From Thermoproteota archaeon (lineage in GTDB: Archaea > Thermoproteota > EX4484-205 > JAAOZP01): a DNA stretch of 21,790 nt. Positions 928 to 19,193 of the stretch are shown one piece after another (the first letter of the stretch is position 1; each line of letters opens with the position of its first letter). The stretch spans positions 1 to 21,790 of the forward strand of contig JBNAVT010000031.1 of the NCBI GenBank assembly GCA_049700215.1, written 5' to 3'. The translations under genes and the position numbers were made by a program. The notes beneath the pieces were generated by a model that had not been told where the DNA came from, did no database searches, and saw only the letters and a list, made by a program, of their open reading frames with translations.

Positions 928-932
928 GCTTA

Positions 933-946
933 GAAAAGTTAATATA
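933..946 (+). promoter_or_regulatory. BRE + TATA promoter of leuACD; predicted TSS about 968-969
   Basis: GAAAAG (933-938) directly followed by TTAATATA (939-946). The same TTAATATA occurs in the ilvB promoter. Confidence 0.75.
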
Positions 947-967
947 GTAGTTGGGTGGCCTCCGTTT

Positions 968-1047
968 AGGAGGTGTGTCGTGCACACATGATGCGTAACG
1001 CCCAAAGGGGGCGAGACTACCTGCGTTCCAGCGCAAGCAACACCTCT
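968..1047 (+). ncRNA. Candidate cis-regulatory structured leader RNA (BCAA leader motif, leuA copy)
   Basis: P1 GAGGUGU 970-976 / ACACCUC 1040-1046. Hairpin CGCCC 999-1003 / GGGCG 1009-1013. Hairpin UGCG 1022-1025 / CGCA 1032-1035. Homologous to 14695-14787 (-) upstream of ilvB. Confidence 0.7.
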
Positions 1048-1051
1048 ATCA

Positions 1052-1078
1052 GATACTGTTGAAAAACAGTGTTGTTTT
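1052..1078 (+). promoter_or_regulatory. GAAA-tetraloop hairpin with short U tract in the leuA leader (possible attenuator or expression platform)
   Basis: GAUACUGUU 1052-1060 / GAAA / AACAGUGUU 1065-1073 (9 bp including 2 G-U), then GUUUU. Confidence 0.45.
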
Positions 1079-1103
1079 AAACCTGTTTTAGGAGGGGTGC
1101 GTA

Positions 1104-2642: not shown

Positions 2643-3904
2643 CTGGTTTAACAGCGATACAGAAAGTTATATCGAGGAAAACAGGTAGGCCTCGGGTGGA
2701 GGCGGGTGAAATAGTTGAGGCGAAAGTGGATTTCCTGATGCTGCACGAGGTTACTGGGCCGCTGGCTGTTGAAGAGTTTGAAAAGATCTCCGGGAGGATC
2801 TGGGACCCCAGCAGGGTTATTGTAGTTTTCGACCACGATACTCCCCCGAGCACGATAGACCTAGCCAGCCAGATGAAGAGGATGAGGAGCTTCGTTAAAA
2901 AACACGGGGTAAGCAACTTCTTCGAAATAGGTAGGGGAGGCATAGCGCACCAGGTTCTCTTTGAAGAAGGCTTCGACACGCCAGGCTCCCTGATAGTGGG
3001 CGCTGACAGCCATACTTGCACCGCTGGAGCAACCGGCGCAGTTGGAATAGGAGTCGGCTCCACAGATGCTGCCGTAGTCCTAGCCACTGGGGAAATATGG
3101 CTAAGAGTCCCTGAAACACTTCTCGTCGAGGTTAAGGGGAGGCTTGGGAAAGGTGTTTTCGCGAAGGATGTTGCTTTAAGCATCGTCGGGACGATCGGCA
3201 GCAGTGGCGCAACATACAAGGCGCTGGAGTACTCCGGCGAAACAGTAAGCCTGATGACACTGTCTGAGCGGCTTACCCTGGCGAACCTCTCGGTGGAGAC
3301 TGGTGCTAAAACCGGGATTGTTCAAACAGACTCTAAAAGCATCGAGTATGCTGAGCTCTACGGAAGAGGCAGCGGGTTCCTGGAAGTCAGGAGTGATGCT
3401 GACGCAGACCTGGAGAAGATCGAGGTGGATGCTTCGCGCCTTGAGCCTGTTGTAAGCGTGCCGCACAGCGTGGACAACGTTAAGCCCGTCACGGAGGTTG
3501 AAGGACTGGAGATAGACCAGGCTTTCCTAGGCTCCTGCACAAACGGGAGGGTGGACGACCTACTAGTAGCCTTCAGAATCCTGAGGAACAGGAGGGTCGC
3601 GCCGGGTGTGAGGCTTGTAGTGAGCCCAGCCTCAGTCAAGGTGTATGAGGAGGCTTTGAGAAAAGGCGTTATCGAGGAGATTGTGAAAGCGGGCGGAATC
3701 GTGACCAGCCCTACGTGCGGCGCATGCCTAGGAATGTCTAGAGGTGTTCTCGCTGAGGGCGAGGTTGCGATTTCAAGCAGCAACAGGAACTTCATAGGCA
3801 GGATGGGTGATAAGAGGAGCAGGGTGTTCCTGGCTTCTCCAGCTACTGTCGCCGCGTCGGCGGTGGAGGGTAAAATAACCGACCCGAGGAGGGTGCTGGC
3901 TTGA
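2639..3904 (+). CDS. leuC: 3-isopropylmalate dehydratase large subunit
   Basis: DH, GADSHTCT, FLGSCTNGR, CGACLG and SNRNFIGRMG aconitase-family motifs. Operon context. Confidence 0.93.
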   Translation: MTGLTAIQKVISRKTGRPRVEAGEIVEAKVDFLMLHEVTGPLAVEEFEKISGRIWDPSRVIVVFDHDTPPSTIDLASQMKRMRSFVKKHGVSNFFEIGRGGIAHQVLFEEGFDTPGSLIVGADSHTCTAGATGAVGIGVGSTDAAVVLATGEIWLRVPETLLVEVKGRLGKGVFAKDVALSIVGTIGSSGATYKALEYSGETVSLMTLSERLTLANLSVETGAKTGIVQTDSKSIEYAELYGRGSGFLEVRSDADADLEKIEVDASRLEPVVSVPHSVDNVKPVTEVEGLEIDQAFLGSCTNGRVDDLLVAFRILRNRRVAPGVRLVVSPASVKVYEEALRKGVIEEIVKAGGIVTSPTCGACLGMSRGVLAEGEVAISSSNRNFIGRMGDKRSRVFLASPATVAASAVEGKITDPRRVLA

Positions 3905-4398
3905 AAATAAGCGGCAGGATTATTAGGCTTGGAGACAACGTTGACACCGACGTGATAATACCTGCAAGGTACTTGGTGACTCATGATGCCGACGTTCTCG
4001 CTAAGCATGTTTTCGAAGACTATTATCCTGAGTTCAGGGTGAAGGCTGCTGGCGGAGCCATAGTGGTTGCCGGGGAGAATTTTGGACTGGGGAGCTCCAG
4101 GGAGCATGCGGTAATAGCGTTGAAACACTCAGGTGTGAAAGCGATAGTCGCCAAGTCTTTCGCAAGAATCTTCTATAGAAACTCTATCAACCTTGGTCTC
4201 CCAGTCCTTATCCTCAGGAGTAAAGAGGGTTTCGACAGGCTTAAGGATTGGGAGGAGGCTGAGCTTGACGTTGCCAACGGGGTTTTAACGATTATTAAAA
4301 CCGGGGAGAAGTTTTCCTGCGATAAAATGCCTGAATTCATGCTGAAAATAATAGAGGCGGGAGGTTTAATAAACTATTTTTTGAAGAAGCGTGAGTGA
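3901..4398 (+). CDS. leuD: 3-isopropylmalate dehydratase small subunit
   Basis: DNVDTDVIIPARYLVT (IPMI-like YLV, not homoaconitase YLRT), NFGLGSSREHA and SFARIFYRN motifs. Confidence 0.93.
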   Translation: MKISGRIIRLGDNVDTDVIIPARYLVTHDADVLAKHVFEDYYPEFRVKAAGGAIVVAGENFGLGSSREHAVIALKHSGVKAIVAKSFARIFYRNSINLGLPVLILRSKEGFDRLKDWEEAELDVANGVLTIIKTGEKFSCDKMPEFMLKIIEAGGLINYFLKKRE

Positions 4399-4429
4399 AA
4401 AACCCAGTGGAAAATGGGGCCGATAACTA

Positions 4430-4437
4430 TTTATAAA
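4430..4437 (+). promoter_or_regulatory. TATA box of the KaiC-like gene (near-leaderless transcript)
   Basis: Consensus TTTATAAA, 25 nt before the TTG at 4463. Confidence 0.6.
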
Positions 4438-4462
4438 CCGGCTCCTCATAAAACTACTACTG

Positions 4463-5311
4463 TTGCTGCGTCGGAGAGAGGCGGTTAGGAGGGAGGCAGT
4501 TGGCAGTTACTCGTGTGAACAGTGTGGACACCAACTCAGCCCTGAATACAAGTTCTGCCCAGTCTGTGGAGCGCCGCGGAAAGGAGTCTCTTATGTGAAG
4601 AGGGTTTCAACAGGCAACCCGGCTATAGATGAGATCCTGGAGGGCGGTTTCGAATCCGGTAAAACATACCTGCTCGCCGGCGAGGCTGGAACCGGGAAGA
4701 CGATTTTCAGCCTACAGTACCTCATATACGGGGCTAAGAGCAATGAGCCCGGTATCTATGTGACGATAGACGAGAGGCCGGAGATGCTTGTGAGAGACGT
4801 GAGGAACTTCGGCTGGGATCTGCAGCCACTCATAGAGACTAGGAAGCTCGCAATCCTCCCGGTTAGAAGATACTTCACCTCTAAAATGTGGGGCAGGGAA
4901 ATGGACGCTATAGTTAACAACATAATAGAGGAGCTTGACAAGAGGAGGAGGGAAATAGGAGCCAGGAGGCTCGTCATAGATCCGATAGCCCCGTTGGTGA
5001 CTACCTACTCGAACGAGGTTGCCTGGGTTAGAGAGTACATCAGGAGCCTCATATTCTCAATCGAGGAGAAGCTCGGCGTGACCACCGTGATAACCTCAGA
5101 GGTTCCCACTGGGGAGAACATGATGAGCAGGTATGGTGTTGAAGAATTTCTGGCGAGCGGCGTCATAATACTCTCACTATCCAGAATCGGCAACTCCATC
5201 ATAAGGACAATGTTCATAAGGAAGATGCGCTGGACCGCGGTGAACCCGACGATCTACAGGTTTGAAATAGAGAGGGGCCGTGGAATAGTTCTTAAAGAAC
5301 CATTAAGCTAG
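4463..5311 (+). CDS. Single-domain KaiC/RAD55-family ATPase with N-terminal zinc ribbon
   Basis: CEQC-x10-CPVC ribbon, RVSTG-x3-D, Walker A GEAGTGKT, Walker B RLVID, YGVEEFLASGVI and KMR arginine finger. Confidence 0.9.
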   Translation: MLRRREAVRREAVGSYSCEQCGHQLSPEYKFCPVCGAPRKGVSYVKRVSTGNPAIDEILEGGFESGKTYLLAGEAGTGKTIFSLQYLIYGAKSNEPGIYVTIDERPEMLVRDVRNFGWDLQPLIETRKLAILPVRRYFTSKMWGREMDAIVNNIIEELDKRRREIGARRLVIDPIAPLVTTYSNEVAWVREYIRSLIFSIEEKLGVTTVITSEVPTGENMMSRYGVEEFLASGVIILSLSRIGNSIIRTMFIRKMRWTAVNPTIYRFEIERGRGIVLKEPLS

Positions 5312-5877
5312 GTAGGCAGCCTGGTTCCGCATCTGAAGCAGAATTTGTAGCGCGCATTGTTTATAGCTCCACACTTAGGACAGGTTTTAGTAGCTCCTGC
5401 ACCGCCAGCCGCCTCCTCGGTGGCAGGCCGCTGCGTAGCAGCCACGGTTTCAACCTGCTCTGGTTCCGCCTCCTCGTATTCAACAGGCTCCTTGAAAGAA
5501 GGCTGCGCCTCAGGAACAGTGGCTGCGCCACTAGTTGGAGCAGCCTGAGCCTCCGGCTCCCTCGGCGCATAGACAGGCGGCTTCGCTGAAACCTGCTCCC
5601 TAACCTGGGCCTTCGGCTCCTCACGGGTTTCGACAGCAGGCTTAGCCGGCACAGGGGGCGCGGCTGGAACAGTAACTTCCTTCTTGAGTATGACGATGTC
5701 TTCAGCAGCGTCAACCTCGCTCCAGATGAACTCCATCTCCCTATTGTCTCTACCGACAACAACTATTCCAACCAGGTTCTCGCCCAGGACGAACCCTATG
5801 TCTTTCACAGTGCCGACATACCTGCCTCTCTTATCGTAAACCTGGAGGCCTATTATCTTGTCTTTTCTAATTAGCAA
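5308..5877 (-). CDS. PRC-barrel domain protein with Pro/Ala/Glu-rich linker and C-terminal zinc ribbon
   Basis: IIGLQVYDKRGRYVGTVKDI...WSEVDAAEDIVIL is a PRC barrel. About 95-aa low-complexity linker, then CPKC-x10-CFRC. Confidence 0.85.
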   Translation of the reverse strand: MLIRKDKIIGLQVYDKRGRYVGTVKDIGFVLGENLVGIVVVGRDNREMEFIWSEVDAAEDIVILKKEVTVPAAPPVPAKPAVETREEPKAQVREQVSAKPPVYAPREPEAQAAPTSGAATVPEAQPSFKEPVEYEEAEPEQVETVAATQRPATEEAAGGAGATKTCPKCGAINNARYKFCFRCGTRLPT

Positions 5878-5999
5878 CCCGTAGAGGAATCCTTCCGAGG
5901 TGACTTTTATTCTTTATCTCCACATTAGTATACAATGCTAACGGCTGACACATGGTGTTTAGCTGGCAGTGAAGCGGTTTTCCAAGCTCTAGGAGTCGC

Positions 6000-7532
6000 T
6001 TAAAGTCGTTTTTCCACGGCGGGGGAGAAAAAGCCCTTCACAAGGCTGTTGACGGAATCCTCGAGAAGCATCCTAGCCTCCCTGTCCCTCTGAACCATCA
6101 GGCCCAGCCTAGAGAAACACTCCTGCAAAACTTTCTCCCTGGCTGCAAGCATCATCGCATCAGCCTCAGGCGAGCCCGCGCCCAGTGAAACGCGCTTCGA
6201 AACGAGAACACTAGTGTCAGCTTCCCTCAGGATCTTCACGAGTAGACTGCTAATGTCCCTACTCAACACGCGCAGGGAAACCTCCCTTAGATCATCCCCG
6301 GTAAGACTAGTCATCCTCCTACCCGTCTTGACGCTGAGCTTCACAATCTCCCCGACAAGCCTGTGGGCAAGCCTGAAAGGAACCCTAGCCTCCTCAACTA
6401 TTCTTTCAGCAACGTCCAAGGCGATGATGCTTGGCTCAGTTAAAGACCTTATTCTCTCACGGTTCTCCTCAAGGTTTTCGAGAACAATCCTGACGATTCT
6501 AATAGCCTCCCTGGTTGTTTCAACCGCCTCGATCAACGGGGGCTTAGTCTCCTGAAGATCCCTCACGTAGCCGCTGGGAACTGCTTTACAGACCATTGAA
6601 AGCTGGGCTAGGCTTGAGAAAACCCTGCCCGTTCTAGCACGGGTCAGCTCAAGTATGCAGGGGTTCTTCTTGTTAGGCATCGCGCTCGACGGGAAAGCCA
6701 GCTCATCGGGAAGCGTGAAGAAACCATACTCGGAGGAAAGCCAGATTACGAGGTCCTCCATAATCCTGCTCAGGTTAAGCATTAGAATGTTAAGGTTTGA
6801 AACGACTTCCAGCGCGAAGTCCCTGGAGGAGACAGCGTCGAAAGAGTTCTCCACAATCCCGTCGAACCCTAGGAGTTTCGTAGTGAGGCTCCTGTCTATT
6901 TTAAGCGAGGAGCCGACTATCGCAACGCTCCCCAGAGGATTCTGGTTAACCCTTTTCAACGATTCGGAGAGGCGGTTGAAGTCCCTCAGAAACATGTCGA
7001 AATAGCCTAGGAAGTAGTGTGAGAGGGGAGCGGCCTGAGCCTGCTGCAGATGAGTGTAGAACGGGAAAACTACGTCGAGAGTCTCCCTCGCCTTCCTCAC
7101 GAGAGCCGCCTCAAGCTCGAGAAGCTCCCTCATGATGCTTAAAACCTCCCTCCTCGTCTTAAGCCTCACCGCCGTAACAACCTGGTCGTTCCTTGAGCGA
7201 GCCGTGTGAACAAGGCCGCCGACTTCCAGACCAGCCTGCTTCACCACGAACGACTCTATCAGCTCGTGAACATCCTCATACTTTTCGAGGTCGAGCTGGC
7301 TTAAACCCTCGTCACGCAGCCTTCTAAGAGCCTCAAGAATCTGTTTAAGCTGCTCCTCAGTAATGTAGCCCTGCTTCATAAGCATGAAGTCGTGCGCAAC
7401 CGTGCACTCAATATCCTCTTCGAATATCCAGATGTCCTCCCTGATGCTGGACACGTACCTCGTGGCCTCTGAGGAAACTGGCCCAAGCCTGCTCCGGTAT
7501 ATGCTTCCACCAGCATCCTGCTCCCCGGACAA
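6000..7532 (-). CDS. argH: Argininosuccinate lyase
   Basis: EDVH, HTARSRNDQV, YTHLQQAQ, NPLGS, DAVSSRD, SSAMPNKKNP signature, RDLQETK and PFRLAH. Confidence 0.93.
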   Translation of the reverse strand: MSGEQDAGGSIYRSRLGPVSSEATRYVSSIREDIWIFEEDIECTVAHDFMLMKQGYITEEQLKQILEALRRLRDEGLSQLDLEKYEDVHELIESFVVKQAGLEVGGLVHTARSRNDQVVTAVRLKTRREVLSIMRELLELEAALVRKARETLDVVFPFYTHLQQAQAAPLSHYFLGYFDMFLRDFNRLSESLKRVNQNPLGSVAIVGSSLKIDRSLTTKLLGFDGIVENSFDAVSSRDFALEVVSNLNILMLNLSRIMEDLVIWLSSEYGFFTLPDELAFPSSAMPNKKNPCILELTRARTGRVFSSLAQLSMVCKAVPSGYVRDLQETKPPLIEAVETTREAIRIVRIVLENLEENRERIRSLTEPSIIALDVAERIVEEARVPFRLAHRLVGEIVKLSVKTGRRMTSLTGDDLREVSLRVLSRDISSLLVKILREADTSVLVSKRVSLGAGSPEADAMMLAAREKVLQECFSRLGLMVQRDREARMLLEDSVNSLVKGFFSPAVEKRL

Positions 7533-7657
7533 CCCTAAACCAGAACTAGCGTCCAGAAACCGGCTAATAAGGGTTACAATCTCCTGGCGAAACCCGCTGA
7601 AAACTTAAAAATGGCTTTGAACAAGTGTTTCAGCAAAGGGTTAAAGGAACCTAGGTC

Positions 7658-8782
7658 ATGATGGTTGAGGAGAGGCTGGAACTCGGGAGGCTTGTAACCT
7701 TCACGCCTAACAAGAGCATTCCAATACACAACTGGTTCCACTATAAGGAAGGCTTCTCCCGCGACTTCGTAGCCCTAGTGAGCAGGCAGCTCGGGCTTGG
7801 GGAAGGCTCGTGGGTGCTGGACCCGTTCTGCGGCGTCGGTACAACCCAGCTGACTGGGAAGGAGCTTGGAATAAACACTGTCGGTGTCGACGTTGCTGAG
7901 CTCCCTGTTTTCGTCTCCAGGGTTAAGACTGCGGACTACGATGTTGAACAGCTTAGGAAGGTTTCCGAAAGGGTTTTCTCAGAAAAGTTCCGTAGGCCCA
8001 GCCTCAGCGGCTTGAGCAGGCTTGCTAGAAGAGCCTTCCCCAGGCATGTTCTGGAGGACGTGGTGTTCTTCAGAGAGATTGTTGAAAACATTGAGGATGA
8101 AACAGCAAAGGGGTTTTTTAAACTCGGCTTAATGAGCGCCGCTATGAAGGCATCCTACGTTGTGAAGGACGGTGGCATTCTCAGAATAGTCAGGGAGAGA
8201 AACGTACCGCCCTTCAGAAAATTCTACAGGAGCAGGATTAAGAGGATGATTAAGGATGTTAAGGCCTACAGGATGCTCAACCCCATAGTGGCCACTTTCA
8301 AGGCTGACTCGAGGAGCCTAGGGTTCCTGGAGGATGAGGCGTTCGACGCGGTCATCACCTCCCCGCCCTACTTGAACAAGATAGAGTACACCAGGGTTTA
8401 CAGCGTTGAAAACGAGCTTTTCTTCAAGGGCTCCGAGCCCATGTTAAGGTCGTACATTGGCGACAACGTTAGGCGAGAGGAGGGTTTTGAAAACGCCGGG
8501 GGCATGCCTGCGGTAGTTGAAGCCTACTTCCAGGATCTGCGGAGAGTCCTCTCAGAGATCCACCGTGTCCTCAAGAGGAAAGGGATGGGCGTGTTCGTCA
8601 TAGCTCAAGGAGTCTTCCCTACTGGCGTTGTGGAAGCAGAGAAAATATTCGTTGAAATGGCTGAGGAAACCGGTTTTGAAACCGAGAAGCTCTGGCTTGT
8701 TAACAGGAGGGTTGCGACGAGGAACCGGGTTGTCAAGATCGGTTATGCCGACGAGTATGTTGTTTTCACCCGTAAACCGTAA
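7658..8782 (+). CDS. Amino-methyltransferase, N4-cytosine-type (alpha order), no adjacent restriction enzyme
   Basis: Motif I VLDPFCGVGTT precedes motif IV VITSPPY. N-terminal HNWFHYKEGFS. Confidence 0.82.
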   Translation: MMVEERLELGRLVTFTPNKSIPIHNWFHYKEGFSRDFVALVSRQLGLGEGSWVLDPFCGVGTTQLTGKELGINTVGVDVAELPVFVSRVKTADYDVEQLRKVSERVFSEKFRRPSLSGLSRLARRAFPRHVLEDVVFFREIVENIEDETAKGFFKLGLMSAAMKASYVVKDGGILRIVRERNVPPFRKFYRSRIKRMIKDVKAYRMLNPIVATFKADSRSLGFLEDEAFDAVITSPPYLNKIEYTRVYSVENELFFKGSEPMLRSYIGDNVRREEGFENAGGMPAVVEAYFQDLRRVLSEIHRVLKRKGMGVFVIAQGVFPTGVVEAEKIFVEMAEETGFETEKLWLVNRRVATRNRVVKIGYADEYVVFTRKP

Positions 8783-8788
8783 AAAGCT

Positions 8789-9802
8789 CTAAATCCTTAG
8801 ACTGTTTTCCACGCTTGGACGTACGGGGTGGGAATCGTAGCCGAGCCTCTTAAGCTCCCTGGAGAACTCCTCTGGGAAACCGTGGACTGTGAAAACCTTC
8901 TCCGGACTGGTTTCCCTCACGATTTCGATCAAGCCTTCGAAATCAGCGTGATCGCTAAGGGGGAAAGCCTTGTCTACGCCAAGCGTCTCACAATACCAGT
9001 TGAAAAGCGACCTGCCTGAGAAGCTTATGAAGACGGCGTCATACTTCCTCTTGATCAGCTGCATGAAAGCATTCCTGCCTGAGACATTAGGATAGTAGAG
9101 AGCCCAGGAGCCGTTGGGCAGCTCTGAGGACTGGGGCGTGAAAACCTTCTTCCCCCCTATTCCTATTGAGAAGAGCCTGTACACGTTGTTATACTCCGCT
9201 ATTGACGGGGAAACGTATGTTTCGACAACGCCTTGGAGAACAGGATCCAGGATCATTTGAAGATGTTGAGACTTCCCCAGTGGATAACCCATGAGAACCA
9301 TTGGCCTGCCCCTCCGGACTGTTTCACTCACGTAGTCAACAATCTCCCTGATCAGCTGCCTCCTAGGGGGGAAGACAAGGCTGGGACGCCCATAGTTCGA
9401 CTCTATTATCAGGGTGTGGACCCTTGGGAAGCATTGCCTAAGTATGCCTTCAACAGGGGAAGTGTTAACGTCCCCCGTGTACAGTACCACACCCCTATCG
9501 GTTTCAACGAGGAGCGCTTTAGACCCTAGAATGTGGCCTGAGTCGAGGAGAGTGAAAGGGTCGGGTTCAACACGTTTAACCTCAAGCCCCCTGAGCGTTG
9601 AAAGCAGCAGGGTTTCCTCTGAGCATACTGCTAAAGCCCTCCTCGCGTCCGACTTACCAAGATGGTCGAAGTGAGCGTGAGATATGAAAAGATAGTCCAT
9701 CGGCTCGAAGCCCGTTTTCAGAAACGCCTCTCCTTCTCTGAAGCATAGGGTTGCGAAACGGTCCAGCTTAATCGAAAAACTCCTCGGGCATGCTGCAGAC
9801 AT
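8789..9802 (-). CDS. Metallo-beta-lactamase/beta-CASP nuclease (COG1236-like)
   Basis: SHAHFDH, GHILGS, YTGD, LIIESNYG, GYPLGKSQ, LSDHADF and VHG motifs. Confidence 0.85.
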   Translation of the reverse strand: MSAACPRSFSIKLDRFATLCFREGEAFLKTGFEPMDYLFISHAHFDHLGKSDARRALAVCSEETLLLSTLRGLEVKRVEPDPFTLLDSGHILGSKALLVETDRGVVLYTGDVNTSPVEGILRQCFPRVHTLIIESNYGRPSLVFPPRRQLIREIVDYVSETVRRGRPMVLMGYPLGKSQHLQMILDPVLQGVVETYVSPSIAEYNNVYRLFSIGIGGKKVFTPQSSELPNGSWALYYPNVSGRNAFMQLIKRKYDAVFISFSGRSLFNWYCETLGVDKAFPLSDHADFEGLIEIVRETSPEKVFTVHGFPEEFSRELKRLGYDSHPVRPSVENSLRI

Positions 9803-9805
9803 TTT

Positions 9806-11440
9806 CTAGGTGAAAAACCTGTTTTCCCTGAGCTTAGTCAGGAACCTGCTTTCAAGCCTCCTAGCCGGAGGAGCCCATTTCCTCCTCCTCTCTTCAAGCT
9901 CATCCCTGTCGACAAGCAGGTCCAGCCTCCTGCCCGGCACGTCTATAAGAATCTCGTCACCGTCCTCCACTAGCGCTATGGGTCCTCCTGCATAAGCCTC
10001 TGGAGAAACATGGCCTATCGCGATGCCCTTCGTGCCGCCTGAGAACCTTCCGTCAGTAACCAGAGCAACCGTTTCAACAAGGTTCCTGCCAACTATGAGC
10101 GAGGTGGGCATTAGCATTTCCCGCATGCCGGGGCCGCCTAGAAGCCCCTCGTAGCGGACAACAACCACAGTGTTCACGTTGAAAACCCCCTTCCTAATGG
10201 CGTCTACAGCCTCCTCCTCAGAGTTGAAAACCCTAGCCTCGCCCCTGAAAGCCCTCAGCTGAACAGGCGTACCGGCGAGCTTGATCACAGCGCCCTCCGG
10301 CGCTAGGGAGCCCCAGAGCACCGCTATCCCTCCTTCACCCCTGTACGGGTTACTCGGAGAACGTATGAGCGTGCCCTTCGGATCAGGGAACGCTTCGACA
10401 AGCTCCCTGAGGCGCCTACCAGTGACAGTCAGAACATCCAGGTTAAGATAGTCCCTAAGAATCCTCATCAGCGAGGGGACTCCGCCAGCGTTGTAAAAAT
10501 CAACCATGAAGCTCTCTCCGGAAGGCCTTATCAGAACAAGCGTAGGTATCCTCCTGCTTATCTCGTCGAAAGCCTTCAGCGGCAAGTCGTAGCCAGCCTC
10601 CTTAGCGAGGGCGTTCAGGTGTAGAACAGTGTTGGTTGAGCCTCCGAGAGCATTGTCGACCACTATAGCGTTAGTCAGGCTTTCAGGCTTAACAATATCC
10701 TTGAACCTTAAGCCCTCCTTCCAGAGCCCAACTATCCTCCTCCCGGACTCGTAGGCAAGGGTCTTCTTACCCTCGTCCTCAGCGTGGGTAGCAGCCATCC
10801 CCGGGAGCGACATACCCATTGCCTCAACCAGGCACGCCATAGTGTTCGCGGTGAATAGGCCGGCGCAACTCCCAGCACCCGGGCAGGCAACCCGTTCAAA
10901 CCCCCTAAGCTCCTCAAGCGTAATCTTCTCCTCACTATACTCTCCGAGAGCCTCGAATACTGAAACCAGGTCCACCCTCCTCCCCTTGAAAACCCCGGGG
11001 TACATGGGCCCGCCGGTAACGAATATCGACGGAAGGTTCAGCCTGGCGGCTGCCAGCAGGTGGCCGGGAACAATCTTGTCGCACGAGGAGACGAAGACCA
11101 GGGCGTCGAACATGTGTGCTGAAACCATTATCTCAACCGAGTCCGCAATAACCTCCCTGCTGGGGAGGGAGAACTTCATCCCCTCATGGTTCATCGCAAT
11201 ACCGTCGCAGACAGCGATCGTATTGAAGACGAAGGGAACCCCGCCCCCATCCCTAACGCCTTCGGAAACCTTCTCAGCAATCGCGTCGAGGTGAACATGC
11301 CCCGGGACAACGTTAGTGTAGGAGTTAACTATGCCTATGAAAGGCTTGTCGAAGTCCTCGCTCCTCAAACCTACGGCGTGGAGCAGAGCCCTGTGCGGAG
11401 CCCTGTCCACACCCTTCTTTACAGCGTCGCTCCTCATCAA
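9806..11440 (-). CDS. ilvD: Dihydroxy-acid dehydratase (start TTG 11440 or ATG 11437)
   Basis: PGHVHL, VCDGIAM, SREVIADS, CDKIVPG, GSCAGLFTANTM, GGSTN, GGPGMREM and TDGRFSGGT motifs. Confidence 0.95.
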   Translation of the reverse strand: MMRSDAVKKGVDRAPHRALLHAVGLRSEDFDKPFIGIVNSYTNVVPGHVHLDAIAEKVSEGVRDGGGVPFVFNTIAVCDGIAMNHEGMKFSLPSREVIADSVEIMVSAHMFDALVFVSSCDKIVPGHLLAAARLNLPSIFVTGGPMYPGVFKGRRVDLVSVFEALGEYSEEKITLEELRGFERVACPGAGSCAGLFTANTMACLVEAMGMSLPGMAATHAEDEGKKTLAYESGRRIVGLWKEGLRFKDIVKPESLTNAIVVDNALGGSTNTVLHLNALAKEAGYDLPLKAFDEISRRIPTLVLIRPSGESFMVDFYNAGGVPSLMRILRDYLNLDVLTVTGRRLRELVEAFPDPKGTLIRSPSNPYRGEGGIAVLWGSLAPEGAVIKLAGTPVQLRAFRGEARVFNSEEEAVDAIRKGVFNVNTVVVVRYEGLLGGPGMREMLMPTSLIVGRNLVETVALVTDGRFSGGTKGIAIGHVSPEAYAGGPIALVEDGDEILIDVPGRRLDLLVDRDELEERRRKWAPPARRLESRFLTKLRENRFFT

Positions 11441-11447
11441 GCCTTTC

Positions 11448-12431
11448 TCAACCGTATATCATCGACCTTATTTTCCTACCAACGTTCTCTATCAAGTGGC
11501 TCCTCTCCCTTTCGACAAGAGTCTTCAGAACAACCTGGTTTGAACTGTTCTCCAGTATCCACTCTCTTGCAAACACTCCTGTCTGAACGTCTTCAAGCAG
11601 CTTCCTCATTTTCCTCTTAACCTCCTCGTCTATAAGGTAGGGGCCGCGCGTAAGCCCCCCGTACTTAGCCGTGTCGCTCACAGCCTGCCACATTCCGGAT
11701 AAGCCTTTAGACCATATCAGGTCGACTATAAGCTTCAGCTCGTTTAAAACCTCGAAGTACGCCACCTCAGGCTGGTACCCTGCTTCAACAAGGATTTCGA
11801 AGCCGCTTTTAATGAGTGACGAGACTCCTCCGCACAGCACAGCCTGCTCCCCGAAGAGGTCTGTCTCAACCTCCTCCTTGAAAGAGGTCTCTATCAAACC
11901 GATTCTACTCAGCCCGACGGCTTTCGCAAGCTCCCTTACGATTCTCGAAGCGTTCCCAGTGTAATCCTGGTGGACGGCTATCAAGCCCGGAACTCCGGTT
12001 CCGCGAACATACGCATCCCTTAAAGCAGGGCCCGGCGCCTTAGGAGCCACGAGAACAACGTCGAGCCAGGGAGACGGAACTATCTGCCTGTAGTGAATGT
12101 TGAAAGCATGCGCGAAAACAAGCGTCGAACCCTTTGAAACATTAGGCTCAACATGATCCCTGTAGACAGCTGGCTGAGCAGGGTCAGGAATAAGCATAAG
12201 TATGATGCTGCTCTTTTTAACGGCCTCACCTATCTCGTAGACTTCGAAACCATCTTCGGAAGCCTTTCTCCACGACGCTCCCCCGCTTCTTAAGCCTATT
12301 ATAGTCTTGACGCCGCTGTCCCTAATATTCTTAGCCTGAGCCTCACCCTGGGAGCCGTAGCCTATGACTGCGACAGTCTTATTCTTAATCAGCTCAATAC
12401 TTATCTCGTCGTCTCTTATTATCCTAGCCAT
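11448..12431 (-). CDS. ilvC: Ketol-acid reductoisomerase
   Basis: IGYGSQG, VAPKAPG, ETDLFGEQAVLCGG and SDTAKYG motifs. Confidence 0.96.
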   Translation of the reverse strand: MARIIRDDEISIELIKNKTVAVIGYGSQGEAQAKNIRDSGVKTIIGLRSGGASWRKASEDGFEVYEIGEAVKKSSIILMLIPDPAQPAVYRDHVEPNVSKGSTLVFAHAFNIHYRQIVPSPWLDVVLVAPKAPGPALRDAYVRGTGVPGLIAVHQDYTGNASRIVRELAKAVGLSRIGLIETSFKEEVETDLFGEQAVLCGGVSSLIKSGFEILVEAGYQPEVAYFEVLNELKLIVDLIWSKGLSGMWQAVSDTAKYGGLTRGPYLIDEEVKRKMRKLLEDVQTGVFAREWILENSSNQVVLKTLVERERSHLIENVGRKIRSMIYG

Positions 12432-12475
12432 CCTCAGTCACCCCTACTCCTCAGCGGTGATTTCTTTTAAGCTTT

Positions 12476-12964
12476 TTACTTTCTGAAACGGTTTAGAGTG
12501 TGAATCATCACGCCGCTCCTTGAGAAGCTTTCAATACGGTCTTTAAACTCCTCCTTGAAATCGTCAACCATCCTGGGGTCGGCCAGGAGCTCGACGAGAA
12601 GCCTGGAGCCGCTTAACAGGGTTGTCCTAGCCCTGTACCTAACCCTGATGTAGTCGCTCACGCTCGTGTCGCAATCCTTCAGCACGGCTATGAAAGCCTC
12701 CCTTATCACGTCGTACTCTAGAGAACCTATCTTAACCTCGGAGACGCAGGGGTTTTTCTCAAGAATCTTAACTATGTTTTCAAACTTCTCCTGGGGCAGG
12801 CTGAAGGTCAGCGATATCTCGGATGTCTTCCCGTTCACCATGCCAACAGTAATCGTGTCAATGTTTATCGCCCTCCTCGCGAATATCGACGAGATTCTCT
12901 CCATCACCCCCGGCATGTTGACAACCCTGAGCACGATGAACCTCTTATTCTCGTCAGAAGCCAT
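12476..12964 (-). CDS. ilvN: Acetolactate synthase small (ACT regulatory) subunit
   Basis: NMPGVMERISSIFARRAINIDTITVG ACT motif and C-terminal RSG. Directly downstream of ilvB. Confidence 0.85.
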   Translation of the reverse strand: MASDENKRFIVLRVVNMPGVMERISSIFARRAINIDTITVGMVNGKTSEISLTFSLPQEKFENIVKILEKNPCVSEVKIGSLEYDVIREAFIAVLKDCDTSVSDYIRVRYRARTTLLSGSRLLVELLADPRMVDDFKEEFKDRIESFSRSGVMIHTLNRFRK

Positions 12965-12970
12965 TCCACT

Positions 12971-14644
12971 CTACCTCCCCACGATAACGCTGTCGAGCGG
13001 GGAAGCTGGAGGAACCATTGGGAAAACATTATCCTCCCGCTCAACAATCACGTCGATCACAGTTGCCTCATCCTGCTCCAGAGCAGTCTCGAGAGCATCT
13101 TTAAGCTCGCTTATCCTCGTCACCTTAAAACCCCTGGCGCCGAAGCCCTCTGAAACCCTAGCTATGTCAGCCCTACCCTTCAGGTCCACGGCGATATACC
13201 TCCTGCCGTAGAAGAGCTCCTGCCACTGCCTAACCATACCCAGGAAATAATTGTTGAGAACCACGACTATGATCGGCAGGTTATAGTCGACTGAGACAGG
13301 AAGCTGGTTGCAAGTCATGAAGAAGCTGCCGTCCCCAGCAATGTCGAAAACACGGCTCCCGGGGAAAGCCGCCTTAACCCCGATTGCAGCCGGAAGCCCG
13401 AAGCCCATTGTCCCCAGGCCACCGGAGGATATGAACTGTCTTGGGCGCCTAACTGTGAAGTGGAGTGAAGCATACATCTGGCACTGGCCCACCTCGGTCG
13501 TAACGAAATCCTCAACCCTAACGTAGTCGCTAAGAACCCTGACGGCAGCACTAGGATCCACGGGGACAGCATCATAGTCGTAAAAGAACTCTGACTCCCT
13601 CCTGAGCTGCTTCACCCTCTCACCCCATGCGCCAGCCTTACCCTTCTGGAGAAGCCTGAGAACCGCCTCGCGAACCCTGTTTAGAACCTGCTTAGCGTCA
13701 CCGGCGATGCCTAGGTCTGGCTTAAGCAGCTTCCCGATCTCAGACCTATCTATGTCCACGTGTATCTTCCTCGCCCTCGGGGCGAAGCCGTTCAGCTTGC
13801 CCGTAGTCCTGTCGCTGAACCTCATGCCTACTGCGAGAACCAGGTCGCTCTCCTGAACAGCCTTGATCGCGCCAAGCCTCCCGTGCATCCCGAGCGTCCC
13901 CAGGGACAACGGGTGGTTCTCAGGAATGCTCCCCTTACCCATGAGCGTCGTCGCCACAGGAGCGTTCAGAAGCTCAGCCAAGGCGATGAGCTCGCTGGAC
14001 GCGCCTGATATTATTACTCCTCCCCCGGCGATGATCACAGGCCTCTCAGCCTCAACCAGCATCCTGGCGGCGGAGAGAATCTCCTCGTCAGAGGGCGTGG
14101 GCGGCTCATACGAGTAAACGTAGAAATCATCATCAGGTTCACCCTCCATGAGCTGAACATCCCTGGGAACATCTATGTGAACAGGCCCAGGCCTTCCGGA
14201 CAAGGCTATTTTAAAAGCGTTCTCGAGAGCAGAGTTAAGCTCATTCAAATCCCTGGGCAGAAAGTTCATCTTAGTCAACCCTATCATCATCGAGAAAATA
14301 TTAGCCTCCTGGAAACCGTCGTAGCCTATGAGCGGCGTCGCAACCTGGCCGGCTATGCTTAAAACCGGCGAGGAATCCAAGTAGGCGTTAGCAATTCCCG
14401 TGGCAAGGTTGGTGGCGCCAGGGCCTGATGTCGCGACGACGACGCCCATCCTGCCGGTTGCCCTAGCATAGCCGTCAGCCATGTGGGCAGCACCCTGCTC
14501 GTGCCTAGTCAGAATGAACTCGATGCTACTCTCCTTATACAGCTCGTCTAGGAACGGGAGCACAGCGCCACCAGGCACTCCGAAGATGGTTTTAACCCCG
14601 TTCTCCCTCAGCTTCTCCACTAGCAGTCTAGACCCTGAAACCAT
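12971..14644 (-). CDS. ilvB: Acetolactate synthase large subunit, biosynthetic type
   Basis: FGVPGG, RHEQGAAHMADGYAR, TSGPGATN, GMHG, RFSDR, SGGLGTMGFG, GDG..NN TPP motif and LGMVRQWQ. SD GAGGTG at 14656-14651. Confidence 0.96.
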   Translation of the reverse strand: MVSGSRLLVEKLRENGVKTIFGVPGGAVLPFLDELYKESSIEFILTRHEQGAAHMADGYARATGRMGVVVATSGPGATNLATGIANAYLDSSPVLSIAGQVATPLIGYDGFQEANIFSMMIGLTKMNFLPRDLNELNSALENAFKIALSGRPGPVHIDVPRDVQLMEGEPDDDFYVYSYEPPTPSDEEILSAARMLVEAERPVIIAGGGVIISGASSELIALAELLNAPVATTLMGKGSIPENHPLSLGTLGMHGRLGAIKAVQESDLVLAVGMRFSDRTTGKLNGFAPRARKIHVDIDRSEIGKLLKPDLGIAGDAKQVLNRVREAVLRLLQKGKAGAWGERVKQLRRESEFFYDYDAVPVDPSAAVRVLSDYVRVEDFVTTEVGQCQMYASLHFTVRRPRQFISSGGLGTMGFGLPAAIGVKAAFPGSRVFDIAGDGSFFMTCNQLPVSVDYNLPIIVVVLNNYFLGMVRQWQELFYGRRYIAVDLKGRADIARVSEGFGARGFKVTRISELKDALETALEQDEATVIDVIVEREDNVFPMVPPASPLDSVIVGR

Positions 14645-14694
14645 TTAAAACACCTCTCGCAAACAGCCTTTTGAAAACTCTTTCTTCCCCTATT

Positions 14695-14787
14695 GGAGGT
14701 TGAGCTTGCAGCGGGGCCTCTGCAGTTGGTGGACGGTGTCCCGCCCCCTTGGAGCGTGAATACTATGGTACACTCAGCGCACCTCCT
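14695..14787 (-). ncRNA. Candidate cis-regulatory structured leader RNA (BCAA leader motif, ilvB copy)
   Basis: P1 GGAGGU 14786-14781 / ACCUCC 14700-14695. CGCUCC-AAG-GGGGCG 14756-14742. GGAC-ACC-GUCC 14741-14731. UGCAG/CUGCA 14724-14707. Homologous to 968-1047 (+). Confidence 0.7.
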
Positions 14788-14811
14788 AAGCAGTGGGCCC
14801 CCCACGAGGCA

Positions 14812-14826
14812 TATATTAATCTTTCC
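14812..14826 (-). promoter_or_regulatory. BRE + TATA promoter of ilvBNCD; predicted TSS about 14789-14787
   Basis: Minus strand GGAAAGA followed by TTAATATA (14819-14812). Confidence 0.72.
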
Positions 14827-14837
14827 CCCTAAGCCGG

Positions 14838-15539
14838 CTAAATATCGTCGATACGAATATTCCTAACCACCAGAGAGCACACGAATAAGGCTGAAAAGTA
14901 GAGCGCCACGGAAATAATTAGAACGGCCACGATCAGTATGAATGAATAGCCAGACTTAAACATGTCGAGGAAGAAAGATGGAGACGACTGGCTTTGCTGC
15001 TGAGTATCAGGCGCAACCGTCGCGCTGAAAACAAGAGTCGTCAAGCTGAAAACAATCATGCAGAGGAAGACTGCCTTTGAGCTAGCGAGCTTTCTAAAAA
15101 CCTCTTCGGAGAAAACAGATCCAAAGGATAATGAGAAGAGCCAGTTGCCGTGCGTCACTAAAAGAAAATACATCAGGCTCGCAACTGTTTCACTATCTAA
15201 AACCCGGATTGAAGGCGTTAAAACTATTAGTGTCTTAAGCTCCAAGAGAATAAAGGAAACCAAGGAGTGTGCCAGCAACGGCTTGTACTCAGAAGTGTTA
15301 ATGTAAAGCCCTAGTTTAAACCCCCTGTTTAAAAACTCTCTGCGCCATATCTCAAGCTCGAAAAACGTTGAGAAGAGAACTATCACTATCCATGTTGCTG
15401 GAAGCAAATGAATAATGGGTTTAAAGGAACCTGAATGCAGTATAACGTAAGCGACCAACGCGGCTGGAGCAAGCTCTAAGACTATTAAGAGCGGTGAGGT
15501 GAAGAAGAACTTCAGCTCCCGGTCTATCAAGTTGGCCAA
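14838..15539 (-). CDS. Divergent ABC-2-type permease-like membrane protein
   Basis: About 6 hydrophobic segments, N-terminal RELKFF typical of ABC-2 permeases, and 6 nt downstream of the ABC ATPase-like gene. Confidence 0.6.
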   Translation of the reverse strand: MANLIDRELKFFFTSPLLIVLELAPAALVAYVILHSGSFKPIIHLLPATWIVIVLFSTFFELEIWRREFLNRGFKLGLYINTSEYKPLLAHSLVSFILLELKTLIVLTPSIRVLDSETVASLMYFLLVTHGNWLFSLSFGSVFSEEVFRKLASSKAVFLCMIVFSLTTLVFSATVAPDTQQQSQSSPSFFLDMFKSGYSFILIVAVLIISVALYFSALFVCSLVVRNIRIDDI

Positions 15540-16784: not shown

Positions 16785-16858
16785 GCGGCGCTGGTCTAGC
16801 CTGGTATGACACCAGCCCCCCAAGCTGGGAATCCCGGGTTCAAATCCCGGGCGCCGCA
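16785..16858 (+). tRNA. tRNA-Gly(CCC), intronless, CCA not encoded, atypical C33
   Basis: Acceptor GCGGCGC/GCGCCGC + A73. D arm GTCT-AGCCTGGTA-TGAC. Anticodon stem CCAGC/GCTGG with loop CCCCCAA (anticodon 16819-16821). T arm CCGGG-TTCAAAT-CCCGG. Confidence 0.95.
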
Positions 16859-17427: not shown

Positions 17428-19086
17428 TTAGTCTAGTTCTCCAGCGCCGCCTTCCTCAGACGGTGGCTTAGGAGCCTTCTCCTTCTCCTTAAGCTTGCCT
17501 GCGGCAATCACGTCGTCAATCCTCAGGATCATGCTTGCAGCCTCGCTTGCAGACTTCACTATCTGCTCCTTCACGAGCAGCGGCTCAACAACCTTGGCAG
17601 CCCAGCTGTCGGAAGTCTTCTTGGAGACGATGTCGATGCCGTACCACTTGTTCCCAGCCTCATGCTGCTTCCTAAGCTCAGCGATTATGTCTATCGGATC
17701 CATGCCGGCGTTTTCAGCGAGCGCTGAAGGAATAGACTCCAACGCGTCTGCGAACCTTAGCACTGCAAGCTGCTCCTTCCCAGATATTGTCTCAGCCTTC
17801 TTCCTTATTCTCATCGCAACCTCTATCTCAGGAGCCCCAGCGCCGGCGACGATATACGGGTATGTGACAACGTCCCTCACGACGCAGAGAGCATCGTGGA
17901 GAGCCCTGTCAGCCTCGTCAACCATCTTCTCAGTCCCACCCCTTATCAGGATTGTTACAGACCTAGGGTCCTTGCACTGCTCGATGAAGACCCACTTGTC
18001 CTCACCGACCTTCCTCTCTTCCACAAGCCCAGCGTAACCAAGGTCGTCCTTAGAAAGCTCGTTCACGCTGGTAACGATCCTGGCGCCGGTTGCCTTAGAG
18101 GCTTTCTCAATGTCAGACTCCTTAACTCTTCTAACTGCGATCACCCCAGCCTTGGCGAGATAGTGTTGAGCAATATCGTCAATACCCTTCTGGCAGAGAA
18201 CCACGTTAGCGCCAGCCTCAACAATCTTGTCAACCATCTCCTTCAGGATCTTCTGCTCCTCGTCGAGGAACGCTTTAATCTGTTCAGGCCTCTCAATGCT
18301 TATCTTAGCGTCGAACTCAGTCTTCTCGATTTCAAGCGGGCTGTTGAGAATAGCTATCTTAGCGTTAACGATCTTCCTAGGCATTCCTGAGTGGACGATC
18401 TCCTTGTCCAGCACGATGCCGTTTATCAGCTTGGTCTCCATCACTGAGCCGCCGGCCTTCTTCTCAACCTTAACGTCGTCAATCCTAACGTTGAACTTCC
18501 CGTTCTCCTCCCTCGCCACCTTCAGAATAGCTTCGACAGCAATCTCCGCAAGCTGGTCGCTGAACTCCCTGATAACCTTGCTCCTGAGGGCAGTCATAGC
18601 TATCAGCTTAAGAGTCTCCCTGTCCGTCGGCTTAACCTCCTGAGCAATCTCCTTCAGGAACTGGAGCGCCATGCTGGTGGCCCTCCTGTAGCCGTCGACT
18701 ATGATCGTCGGGTGGACATCCATGTCTAAAAGCTCCTCAGCCTTCTTCAAAAGCTCCCCTGCCAGGACTACCGCCGAGGTTGTTCCGTCACCAGCCTCAA
18801 CGTCAGTACTCTTAGCGACTTCAACCATCATCTTGGCAGCCGGGTGCTCAATCTCCATCTCCTTCAGAATCGTTGCACCATCGTTGGTTATCGTAACGTC
18901 CCCGAGCGAGTCGACGAGCATCTTGTCCATTCCCCTTGGGCCGAGGGACGAGCGGACTATTTCTGAAAGGGTTATTGCAGCGTTAAGATTGTTCCTCTGG
19001 GCTTCCCTGCCCCTTGTCCTAGTGCTTCCCTCTTTAAGTATTAGTACGGGTGTTCCTCCCACTGTTGCAGGTATAGCTGTAGCCAT
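17428..19086 (-). CDS. ths: Thermosome subunit (group II chaperonin)
   Basis: [32 protein letters not shown] and QKGIDD motifs. SD GAGGTGA at 19100-19094. Confidence 0.97.
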
Positions 19087-19124
19087 TTCAATCTCACCTC
19101 AAAACCCCCCATTAATAAAAGGGG

Positions 19125-19136
19125 TATAAAAACTTT
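19125..19136 (-). promoter_or_regulatory. Thermosome promoter (BRE + TATA)
   Basis: Minus strand AAAG-TTTTTATA, back-to-back with the + strand AAAAA-CTTAAGT (19157-19168) of the divergent gene. Confidence 0.6.
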
Positions 19137-19193
19137 ATTTCAAGGGTTGAAAAGTGAAAAACTTAAGTCTAACCTCCTCCTGAAGAAATAGAA

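Follow-up and report, generated by a model that had tools for sequence, protein, structure and literature searches.

Paired leaders of the branched-chain amino-acid operons in an uncultured archaeal genus as candidates for ribosome-mediated control

What could the same conserved leader be doing in front of two different branched-chain amino-acid operons of an archaeon? The question is raised by a stretch of 21,790 nucleotides (nt) from a hot-spring Thermoproteota archaeon (contig JBNAVT010000031.1, assembly GCA_049700215.1), the whole of which was analysed here and is referred to as the window. One leader precedes ilvB and its paralog precedes leuA. The first-pass annotation described the ilvB leader as the second copy of a structured RNA motif and overlooked an open reading frame (ORF) with its own Shine-Dalgarno (SD) sequence and start codon, which is present in 47/47 leaders. 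We consider it on balance probable, if only just, that this leader ORF is translated and coupled to a switch between SD and anti-SD pairings, which would amount to ribosome-mediated control of branched-chain amino-acid genes in an archaeon.

Two leaders retained within one genus

The 95-nt string of the ilvB leader matches the window exactly (14789 to 14695, minus strand) and is separated by 50 nt from the ilvB start at 14644. Its counterpart lies at 966-1050 on the plus strand, upstream of the leuA start at 1104. From the AAAG-TTAATATA promoter element through the start codon, the ilvB and leuA intergenic regions show 76% mean column identity over 196 columns, which bears out the view of the ilvB leader as a second copy. 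The equal spacing of the conserved blocks that had been noticed between the two copies also holds, since the distance from GGAGGTG to GC-NNN-AAGGGGGCG is the same in both window copies and in 46/47 distinct leaders, the one deviating leader having a 2-nt deletion. A CAU in or near a loop of both copies, also remarked upon earlier, was not confirmed as a common feature: in one leuA subgroup it arises from the C that precedes the ATG, in one ilvB subgroup it is a His codon, and the other leaders lack it.

To describe the distribution of the element, we combined BLAST, pattern and covariance-model searches. BLAST with the ilvB leader identified orthologs in 15/16 other species of the genus (72-93% identity), and these do carry the conserved blocks that the first-pass annotation had called for in orthologous leaders; in 24 genomes outside the genus it returned nothing better than an E value of 0.009. 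The leuA leader was found by BLAST in 14/16 other species of the genus. One genome per prokaryote species was also scanned with a degenerate pattern of the two invariant blocks, which matched 34 stretches. Of these, 30 belong to archaeal hot-spring metagenome-assembled genomes (MAGs), nearly always with two stretches per genome, whose titles read Brockarchaeota, Thermoproteota, Crenarchaeota, Thaumarchaeota/Nitrososphaerota or uncultured archaeon; the other four come from unrelated bacteria and one Thermoplasmata MAG. A like scan over metagenome contigs yielded 40 stretches. Taken together, 55/74 stretches follow a TATA box and precede a start of ilvB or leuA type, and the 19 that lack this leader context all differ in spacing (45-49 nt). 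The leader 12-mer occurs at six places in the genome of the window (BLAST and pattern), with leader context only at the two leaders.

The resulting set comprises 47 distinct leaders (ilvB type, 25; leuA type, 22). The covariance model derived from this set was searched against 151 genomes from 77 genera of the phylum and matched exactly the two leader sites in the genome of the window. All 13 sampled genomes of the same genus were matched, with two sites in 11 and one each in two incomplete genomes, and no match was obtained in 137 genomes of 76 other genera. In three genomes of other genera of the class the region upstream of leuA, and this region only, was inspected by eye: leuA has a plain promoter and no leader in G017, and directly follows ilvD without a leader in G018 and G020. 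G018 gave no covariance-model match, and G017 and G020 were covered by BLAST only (best E value 1.9).

One Brockarchaeota-type genus has therefore kept both leader copies in all of its species with adequate assemblies. The leader tree supports the split between ilv and leu types at 0.999 and shows the same sub-clades on either side. Because of this distribution and of the ilv/leu split, we infer that a cassette of promoter plus leader was duplicated before the genus radiated and that both copies have been retained since. The earlier judgement that this is no recent neutral duplication is thus upheld, the two leaders being old paralogs under selection, and we judge the leader element to be functional.

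A leader frame with an internal Shine-Dalgarno-like block and a fixed pathway codon

The SD sequence of the leader ORF (SD1) lies 22-27 nt past the TATA box in the leaders. SD1 together with the preceding A is the exact complement of the 16S rRNA 3′ end CACCUCCU in 5/6 rRNA loci; as the 16S rRNA of the genus ends in GAUCACCUCCU (5/6 rRNA loci read), AGGAGGUG is a perfect complement of its tail. Judged by a leaderless gene of the window, transcription starts about 25-27 nt past the TATA box, and by this distance the leader transcripts should begin at or just before SD1. Small-protein genes of the same genome share the layout of TATA box, 22-27 nt, GGAGGTG(A), 5-7 nt and start codon. When the genome was scanned for this layout with a short frame and then a long gene behind it, only the ilvB leader was returned; the leuA leader was missed because of its 12-nt spacing between SD1 and start.

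The spacer between TATA box and SD1 (14787-14811 on the minus strand and 947-968 on the plus strand) is 22-27 nt long and variable in sequence throughout the 47 leaders, and it often contains a small palindrome or a CUCC-type word complementary to SD1. The longest stretch complementary to SD1 averages 3.9 nt (2.7 nt in shuffled sequences), and folding of the region that spans TATA box, spacer and SD1 gives a mean z-score of −1.29. Should transcription begin further upstream than we assume, the spacer would hide SD1; otherwise it would be a DNA-level feature around the start site. Upstream of the thermosome gene (17428-19086), the region 19087-19140 on the minus strand shows a layout like that of the leaders, with TTTTTATA, a 24-nt spacer, GAGGTGA, 7 nt and ATG, and this spacer holds the palindrome CCCC-N-GGGG. 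Strong promoters of this organism may have palindromic spacers in general. Two runs from hot springs that are labelled metatranscriptomic (probably DNA, in the form of contigs, share 0.06) were compared with 800-15200 and yielded contigs of relatives that are mostly less than 95% alike; they carry no molecule starts or ends and give no evidence either way.

In each of the 47 leaders SD1 is followed by a start codon in frame with 20-27 open codons, which include those of the invariant block (x-R-G-R-D). The start is a GTG 6 nt past SD1 in 37 leaders, a GTG at 4 nt in one and an ATG at 12 nt in nine. All 25 ilvB leaders use the GTG at 6 nt; the leuA leaders use it in 12 cases, the GTG at 4 nt in one and the ATG in nine, all in one shared frame. 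In the 10 leuA leaders without a GTG at the usual place, an ATG follows two codons (6 nt) later and keeps the frame. From the invariant block onward, the leuA frame has 18 codons in 21/22 leaders and is two codons (6 nt) shorter in the exception, and a 2-nt deletion in another leader falls upstream of its ATG. In the long ilvB leaders the position of the stop is fixed and its identity varies between TAG, TGA and TAA, and 8/25 ilvB leaders end earlier, at a TAA. When the variable alignment columns were shuffled in 20000 trials, the frame stayed open in all rows in 118-185/20000 trials for leuA and, for ilvB, in 1261/20000 (codons 1-20) and 2864/20000 (long leaders). The C-terminal half of the peptide is hypervariable, and is cut short in the 8/25 early-ending ilvB leaders. 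The frames always lie 32-54 nt before ilvB or leuA. At the sequence level, the 5′ leader of the operon thus contains what is known from attenuators, a short ORF preceded by a ribosome-binding site, and the frame is predicted to be translated.

Within the frame, AAGG-GGCG-GA is invariant in 47/47 leaders. The sole change in the G run gives AGGAGG, which replaces Gly by Arg and is a better SD core, and AGG GGG is never swapped for synonymous codons. Codon 8 varies (CCA, CAA, CGA, AAA, CTA, ATA), its first two bases being free and its third always A. Past this block, the codons invariant within a paralog are codon 14 of leuA and codons 14, 16 (CAA) and 17 (CTG, 25/25) of ilvB. Codon 14 is GTC (Val) in 25/25 ilvB leaders and CTG (Leu) in 22/22 leuA leaders, and begins 9 nt after the G run in both paralogs, a gap similar to the distance from SD core to start codon in this genome. 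The leaders therefore appear to differ where a Leu sensor and a Val(+Leu) sensor would be expected to differ, which agrees with the initial suggestion that the variable parts might set specificity for Leu as opposed to Val or Ile. We regard codon 14 as the candidate sensor. The GGAC-ACC-GUCC insertion of the ilvB leader corresponds to codons 12-14 of its frame, with the Val codon as 3′ arm. A tRNA-Gly(CCC) gene is located at 16785-16858 on the plus strand (Rfam, 58.2 bits, and aragorn) and reads GGG, the invariant Gly codon of the leader frames, which is probably a coincidence.

Alternative pairings, ribosome position and rival explanations

To evaluate the RNA structure, named helices were tested on the 47-sequence alignment, which contains 46 distinct rows. 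Helix H1 joins the GUG of GGAGGUG to YAC. Each of five pairs is kept in 45-46/46 rows, two of them change on both sides (CG/UG/UA and AU/GU/GC), and 87% of cells are paired over its 7 pairs. Cells changed on both sides numbered 31, compared to 12.2 ± 2.7 in shuffles, and 0/500 shuffles reached 31. Over the whole tested structure 81.5% of cells are paired, compared to 28-60% with the partners slid. The second pairing, P1, joins GGAGGU to ACCUCY and keeps six core pairs in 44-46/46 rows. Its 5′ strand is invariant and its 3′ strand varies only as C/U opposite G and A/G opposite U; none of its 7 core pairs is changed on both sides. H1 and P1 share bases and are therefore mutually exclusive.

H1 is the only well-paired helix with pairs changed on both sides. 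Helices H2 (CGCYC/GGGCG) and H3 show one-sided changes or none, and the last hairpin (H4), which had been proposed as a structural element, has some pairs that change on both sides, yet only 52% of its cells are paired, which does not support this proposal. The extra GGAC-ACC-GUCC hairpin is indeed present at 14741-14731, with three always-paired base pairs and one outer pair kept in 11/24 distinct ilvB leaders; none of its pairs changes on both sides, and it lies in ilvB-specific codons, the invariant Val codon among them. RNAalifold on 32 leaders predicted 14 pairs, of which one shows a compensatory change, with a covariation term of only −1.71 kcal/mol, and hence does not support a shared riboswitch-like fold. 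For the 85-95-nt cores, minimum free energy (MFE) folding gave z-scores of −2.2 and −2.8. A search of the whole window with Rfam (4227 models, gathering thresholds) detected only a tRNA. With E values up to 10, the ilvB leader gave two chance rows for long non-coding RNAs (E values 2.5 and 3.5) and the leuA leader none. The leaders are thus under RNA-level constraint, but lack the multi-helix covariation of an aptamer, and no aptamer supported by covariation in several helices was found. Of the initial description as a structured RNA under selection, the selection and the covariation of H1 stand, whereas the one-sided changes in P1, the single compensatory pair among 14 and the lack of an Rfam match do not fit it. 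A K-turn, a box C/D element, a T-box specifier and tRNA-end mimicry were each sought by eye and rejected, as the GA/AG, C/D or UGGN elements by which these motifs are defined are not conserved among the orthologs.

Near the end of the frame, ACCUCC/ACCUCU forms an anti-SD. It is located 2 nt before the stop in 17/17 long ilvB leaders, and in leuA leaders this distance is 11-12 nt. Some ilvB leaders share 9 identical nt with the rRNA tail at this place. The anti-SD lies in different reading frames in the two paralogs (CTC-C and ACC-TCT), which makes it a feature of the RNA and not of the peptide. In MFE folds the anti-SD is paired with SD1 in some leaders and with the SD of the downstream gene (SD2) in others. 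We calculated the mean unpaired probability of SD2 with a partition-function model at 65 °C, in which a 30-nt stretch held single-stranded represented the ribosome. For free RNA this probability was 0.53 in leuA and 0.30 in ilvB; it was 0.64 and 0.42 with the ribosome at the leader stop, 0.37 and 0.27 with the ribosome at codon 14, and 0.35 and 0.25 with the ribosome at the leader start, respectively. SD2 accessibility rose with the ribosome at the stop in 12/22 leuA and 15/25 ilvB leaders, and fell with the ribosome at codon 14 in 18/22 leuA and 9/25 ilvB leaders. In this model, ribosomes that finish the leader frame would open the SD of the gene, and those held earlier would close it. The predicted sign of the regulatory response fits an arrest feedback triggered by excess, or simple coupling, and does not fit induction by hungry codons unless kinetics or transcription reverse it. 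A transcriptional attenuator was considered and rejected, since the leuA stop hairpin ACUGUU/AACAGU contains uncompensated mismatches in several orthologs and the T runs are inconsistent; in the absence of a conserved hairpin plus U tract, the translational type of attenuator was considered.

The anatomy, conservation and pairing potential of the leaders, which are direct observations, can be combined into the following mechanism. The leader transcript would begin at or just before SD1 and be translated into a peptide of 20-27 residues, the sequence of which would be mostly free. The kept parts would be SD1 with its in-frame start, the internal SD-like word AAGGGGGCG, the pathway codon nine bases on (Val for ilvBNCD, Leu for leuACD) and, near the frame end, the 16S tail copy CACCUCC, which could pair with SD1 or SD2. 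The placement of the ribosome on the leader frame would decide whether SD2 is free: over the frame end it would cover the anti-SD and leave SD2 open, and held at the start or at codon 14 it would leave the anti-SD free to close SD2. Translation of ilvB or leuA, and perhaps transcription too, would be tied to the speed at which the Val or Leu codon is read. It may be speculated, and we offer this only as a tentative possibility, that archaea have here a ribosome-mediated sensor of their own, in which the leader ORF has its own promoter and its transcript starts at SD1, the SD-like word holds the elongating ribosome by its 16S tail, a single pathway codon sits in the decoding centre and the tail copy relays the position to the SD of the biosynthetic gene.

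Several observations weigh against a translated and sensing leader frame. The shuffle tests for ilvB are not significant on their own (0.063 and 0.14), and the +1 frame of ilvB is nearly open too, with a stop in 1/25 and 0/17 rows. No selection on the peptide is apparent: among single-base codon differences, the synonymous share is 0.17-0.23 in frame compared to 0.22-0.44 in shifted frames, changes are spread evenly over the three codon positions without an excess at the third, and the conserved blocks are conserved as nucleotides. This pattern fits regulatory leader frames, in which the act of translation matters and not the product, and a non-coding RNA would show the same. The leader frames also use CGA, which accounts for 2/438 Arg codons in 15 window genes, and CAA, which accounts for 10% of Gln codons there; this use fits non-coding sequence as well as a programmed pause. 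Codon 14 is not rare, as CTG makes up 25% of Leu codons and GTC 19% of Val codons, and instead of a codon run leuA has a single candidate sensor codon, and ilvB a single Val codon together with one or two for Leu. H1 covers the leader start codon, and with the 22-nt spacer of leuA transcripts may start inside SD1. In the equilibrium model, a ribosome at codon 14 closes SD2, which is the wrong sign for induction by starvation. Finally, no consistent oligo-T terminator follows the frame: T runs of at least 3 are absent in the 8 short ilvB leaders, and T4-T6 occur in most others.

It is textbook knowledge that bacteria control amino-acid operons through the translating ribosome, and leader-peptide attenuators of branched-chain operons are known from Escherichia coli (leuL, ivbL, ilvL type) and, with the ilvBNC leader, from Corynebacterium (cf. 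PMC11857589). Archaea couple transcription and translation, so that such control is possible in principle. The archaeal leaders share with the attenuators a short frame, predicted to be translated, in the 5′ leader of leuA and ilvB, candidate regulatory codons of the own pathway (Leu in the leu leader; Val and Leu in that of ilvB, the same two amino acids as in the control of E. coli ilvBN) and potential, mutually exclusive RNA pairings that overlap the frame. They differ in having one fixed candidate sensor codon instead of a codon run, an internal SD-like word 9 nt before this codon, no terminator of hairpin plus U tract and no match to an Rfam leader family. The alternative pairings of the archaeal leaders involve SD1, the rRNA-tail copy and SD2, and the output would therefore be translation initiation. 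In this they resemble the translational attenuation leaders of resistance genes of the ermC, cat and cmlA type (cf. PMC5499644 and PMC5118997). As in those leaders, the position of a ribosome on the leader ORF would, according to our model, remodel a helix that hides a downstream SD. Leaders of the ermC, cat and cmlA type respond to an antibiotic in the exit tunnel combined with a specific nascent peptide, whereas the archaeal leaders involve no drug, precede biosynthetic genes and encode a peptide that is unconserved outside RGRD.

Arrest peptides that sense metabolites, such as TnaC, the fungal arginine attenuator peptide and SpeFL, offer another comparison. The archaeal leaders likewise have a short conserved motif (A-x-R-G-R-D) just before a fixed codon, and in the model an arrest there would reduce expression of the downstream gene, as feedback by an excess of Leu or Val requires. 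In contrast to arrest peptides, the archaeal motif is conserved as nucleotides, AGG GGG being never exchanged synonymously and the Gly to Arg change making a better SD, which argues for a role of the RNA rather than of the peptide. To our knowledge, no archaeal arrest peptide has been reported. With translational riboswitches and T-box leaders, the archaeal leaders share the order of SD-like 5′ strand, anti-SD and gene SD upstream of amino-acid genes; unlike these, they have no covarying multi-helix aptamer, specifier loop, T-box sequence or Rfam match.

The main rivals of ribosome-mediated control are a riboswitch-like RNA and a coupler that senses nothing. According to the former, SD1 and the anti-SD would close the P1 of a ligand- or tRNA-binding aptamer with the core AAGGGGGCGAGA, the ligand would move the anti-SD between SD1 and SD2, and the open frame would be a by-product. 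The order of anti-anti-SD, anti-SD and SD is the usual expression platform of translational riboswitches, and conservation of the blocks as nucleotides without synonymous drift, the kept P1 core pairs (44-46/46 rows), the covariation of H1 and the z-scores of the cores (−2.2 and −2.8) are all in line with such an RNA. We nevertheless consider it unlikely, if worth serious thought, since a single short helix covaries, the P1 core has no both-sided change, H4 is paired in 52% of cells, the RNAalifold term amounts to −1.71 kcal/mol, no Rfam family matches up to an E value of 10 and the element is limited to one genus; moreover, the start codon with its in-frame replacement, the stop pattern and the Val or Leu codon at a fixed distance would be left unexplained. 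The same Val and Leu codons, invariably present at position 14 of all ilvB and all leuA leaders, and the invariant internal SD-like block are also what a constitutive translational coupler would leave unexplained, that is, a 5′-untranslated-region device without amino-acid sensing that sets the expression level or makes it depend on temperature or translation capacity. In its favour, SD2 is mostly paired in the model and becomes free when a ribosome occupies the leader stop, the anti-SD precedes this stop by 2-12 nt, and the sign problem of the sensor model would vanish. Such a device would have no evident reason to occur, as observed, only before the two branched-chain amino-acid operons of the genome, and we regard it as distinctly unlikely.

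Two further explanations seem remote. The conserved blocks could be DNA sites for a transcription factor, for example of Lrp type, around and downstream of the transcript start. They do begin at the predicted start, and the partial complementarity between spacer and SD1 (3.9 compared to 2.7 nt) and the fold of the TATA-to-SD1 segment (z −1.29) could be read this way. However, conservation extends to about +100, the C/U and A/G changes that keep G-U pairs and the covariation of H1 via G-U intermediates are properties of RNA, the SD, start, frame and rRNA-tail copy are strand-specific, and no regulator gene adjoins either operon in the window, all of which makes DNA sites very improbable. That the small frames encode trans-acting peptides unrelated to control of the downstream gene is scarcely credible: their promoter-SD-start layout equals that of small-protein genes of the genome, but purifying selection is missing outside the nucleotide blocks, the hypervariable C-terminal half is truncated in 8/25 ilvB leaders, and the frames keep to their place 32-54 nt before ilvB or leuA.

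If correct, ribosome-mediated control by these leaders would represent the first leader-peptide attenuator in Archaea, with a one-codon design unlike the codon runs of bacteria. The two paralogs would then be a natural example of leaders that differ in the sensor codon, and a swap of this codon should swap specificity. The leader also uses SD-like and rRNA-tail-like words in an unusual way, within a reading frame. Small frames of this kind are missed by gene callers in MAGs. A full-text literature search, the coverage of which left out most subscription journals, returned no archaeal leader-peptide control of branched-chain amino-acid genes; the sole archaeal upstream ORFs met in it were the unexplained ones in ribosome profiling of Haloferax (PMC7261190).

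Feature coordinates and further observations

The coordinates of both leaders and their genes are compiled in Table 1. The ilvB leader is flanked by a same-strand ORF resembling a membrane protein (14838-15539, no Pfam match) and by ilvB, the leuA leader by a MarC-family gene on one side and leuA-leuC-leuD on the other.

Table 1 Features of the two leaders and adjoining genes in the window. Given are the feature, its position, the strand and remarks (TPP, thiamine pyrophosphate; BRE, B recognition element).
Feature	Position	Strand	Remarks
ilvB, acetolactate synthase large subunit	12971-14644	−	Pfam matches with E values of 1e-42 to 1e-129, TPP-enzyme domains
ilvN, ilvC, ilvD	9806-12964		Downstream of ilvB
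TATA box TTAATATA of the ilvB leader promoter, preceded by AAAG (BRE-like)	14812-14819	−	Invariant in 32/32 aligned leaders, both paralogs
SD1 GGAGGTG, SD of the ilvB leader ORF and 5′ strand of P1	14780-14786	−	Invariant in 47/47 leaders
H1, 5-bp hairpin GUGNN/NNYAC	14768-14782	−	Overlaps 3′ half of SD1 and GTG start codon
ilvB leader ORF, GTG + 26 codons + TAG, predicted peptide M/V-YHSIHAPRGRDTVHQLQRPRCKLNLQ	14690-14773	−	Open in 25/25 ilvB leaders
Invariant block AAGGGGGCGGGA, codons 8-12, xRGRD, internal SD-like word	14739-14750	−	
Codon 14, GTC (Val), of the ilvB leader	14732-14734	−	25/25 ilvB leaders
Codon 17, CTG (Leu), of the ilvB leader, preceded by invariant CAA	14723-14725	−	25/25 ilvB leaders
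Anti-SD AACCTCC, 16S rRNA tail copy, 3′ strand of P1, alternative partner of the ilvB SD	14695-14701	−	
SD2 GAGAGGTG, SD of ilvB (ATG 14642-14644)	14651-14658	−	Read from sequence
TATA box of the leuA leader	939-946	+	
SD1 GGAGGTG of the leuA leader	969-975	+	
leuA leader ORF, ATG + 23 codons + TGA, MMRNAQRGRDYLRSSASNTSIRYC	988-1062	+	Open in 22/22 leuA leaders
Invariant block AAGGGGGCGAGA in the leuA leader ORF	1005-1016	+	
Leu codon CTG in the leuA leader ORF	1021-1023	+	
Anti-SD ACACCTCT in the leuA leader ORF	1040-1047	+	
SD2 AGGAGGGG and leuA ATG	1090-1106	+	leuC and leuD follow, to 4398

The organisms of the leader genus are uncultured, and some further features were noted in their MAGs. 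Contigs C23 (about 5938, minus strand) and C50 (about 4330, plus strand) of G000, the genome of the window, carry two paralogous 38-codon genes (MALRK...IDWEEIAKDLRAD...VCFK), which share a conserved upstream region and the layout TATA-24 nt-GGAGGTGA-7 nt-ATG. A small gene on C3 with the same layout encodes a zinc-ribbon-like peptide of 34 residues. On contig C49 of G000 (9255-10029), matches to the 16S rRNA model come in pieces, with model positions 4-496 and 509-826 lying 12 nt apart and the rest missing, and similar breaks were seen in four relatives (G002, G004, G005 and G006). The rRNA gene may thus hold insertions or introns, or the assemblies may be broken there. G011 contains two full-length 16S rRNA genes on contigs C36 and C16 (L174), the 3′ ends of which read ...CACCUCCA and ...CACCUCCU, and one of them may represent contamination of the MAG. 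Elsewhere in the window, a KaiC-like ATPase with an N-terminal zinc ribbon (4463-5311, plus strand) is convergent with the gene for a PRC-barrel/zinc-ribbon protein (5308-5877, minus strand). The KaiC-like gene appears to be leaderless, with a TTG start about 27 nt after its TATA box.

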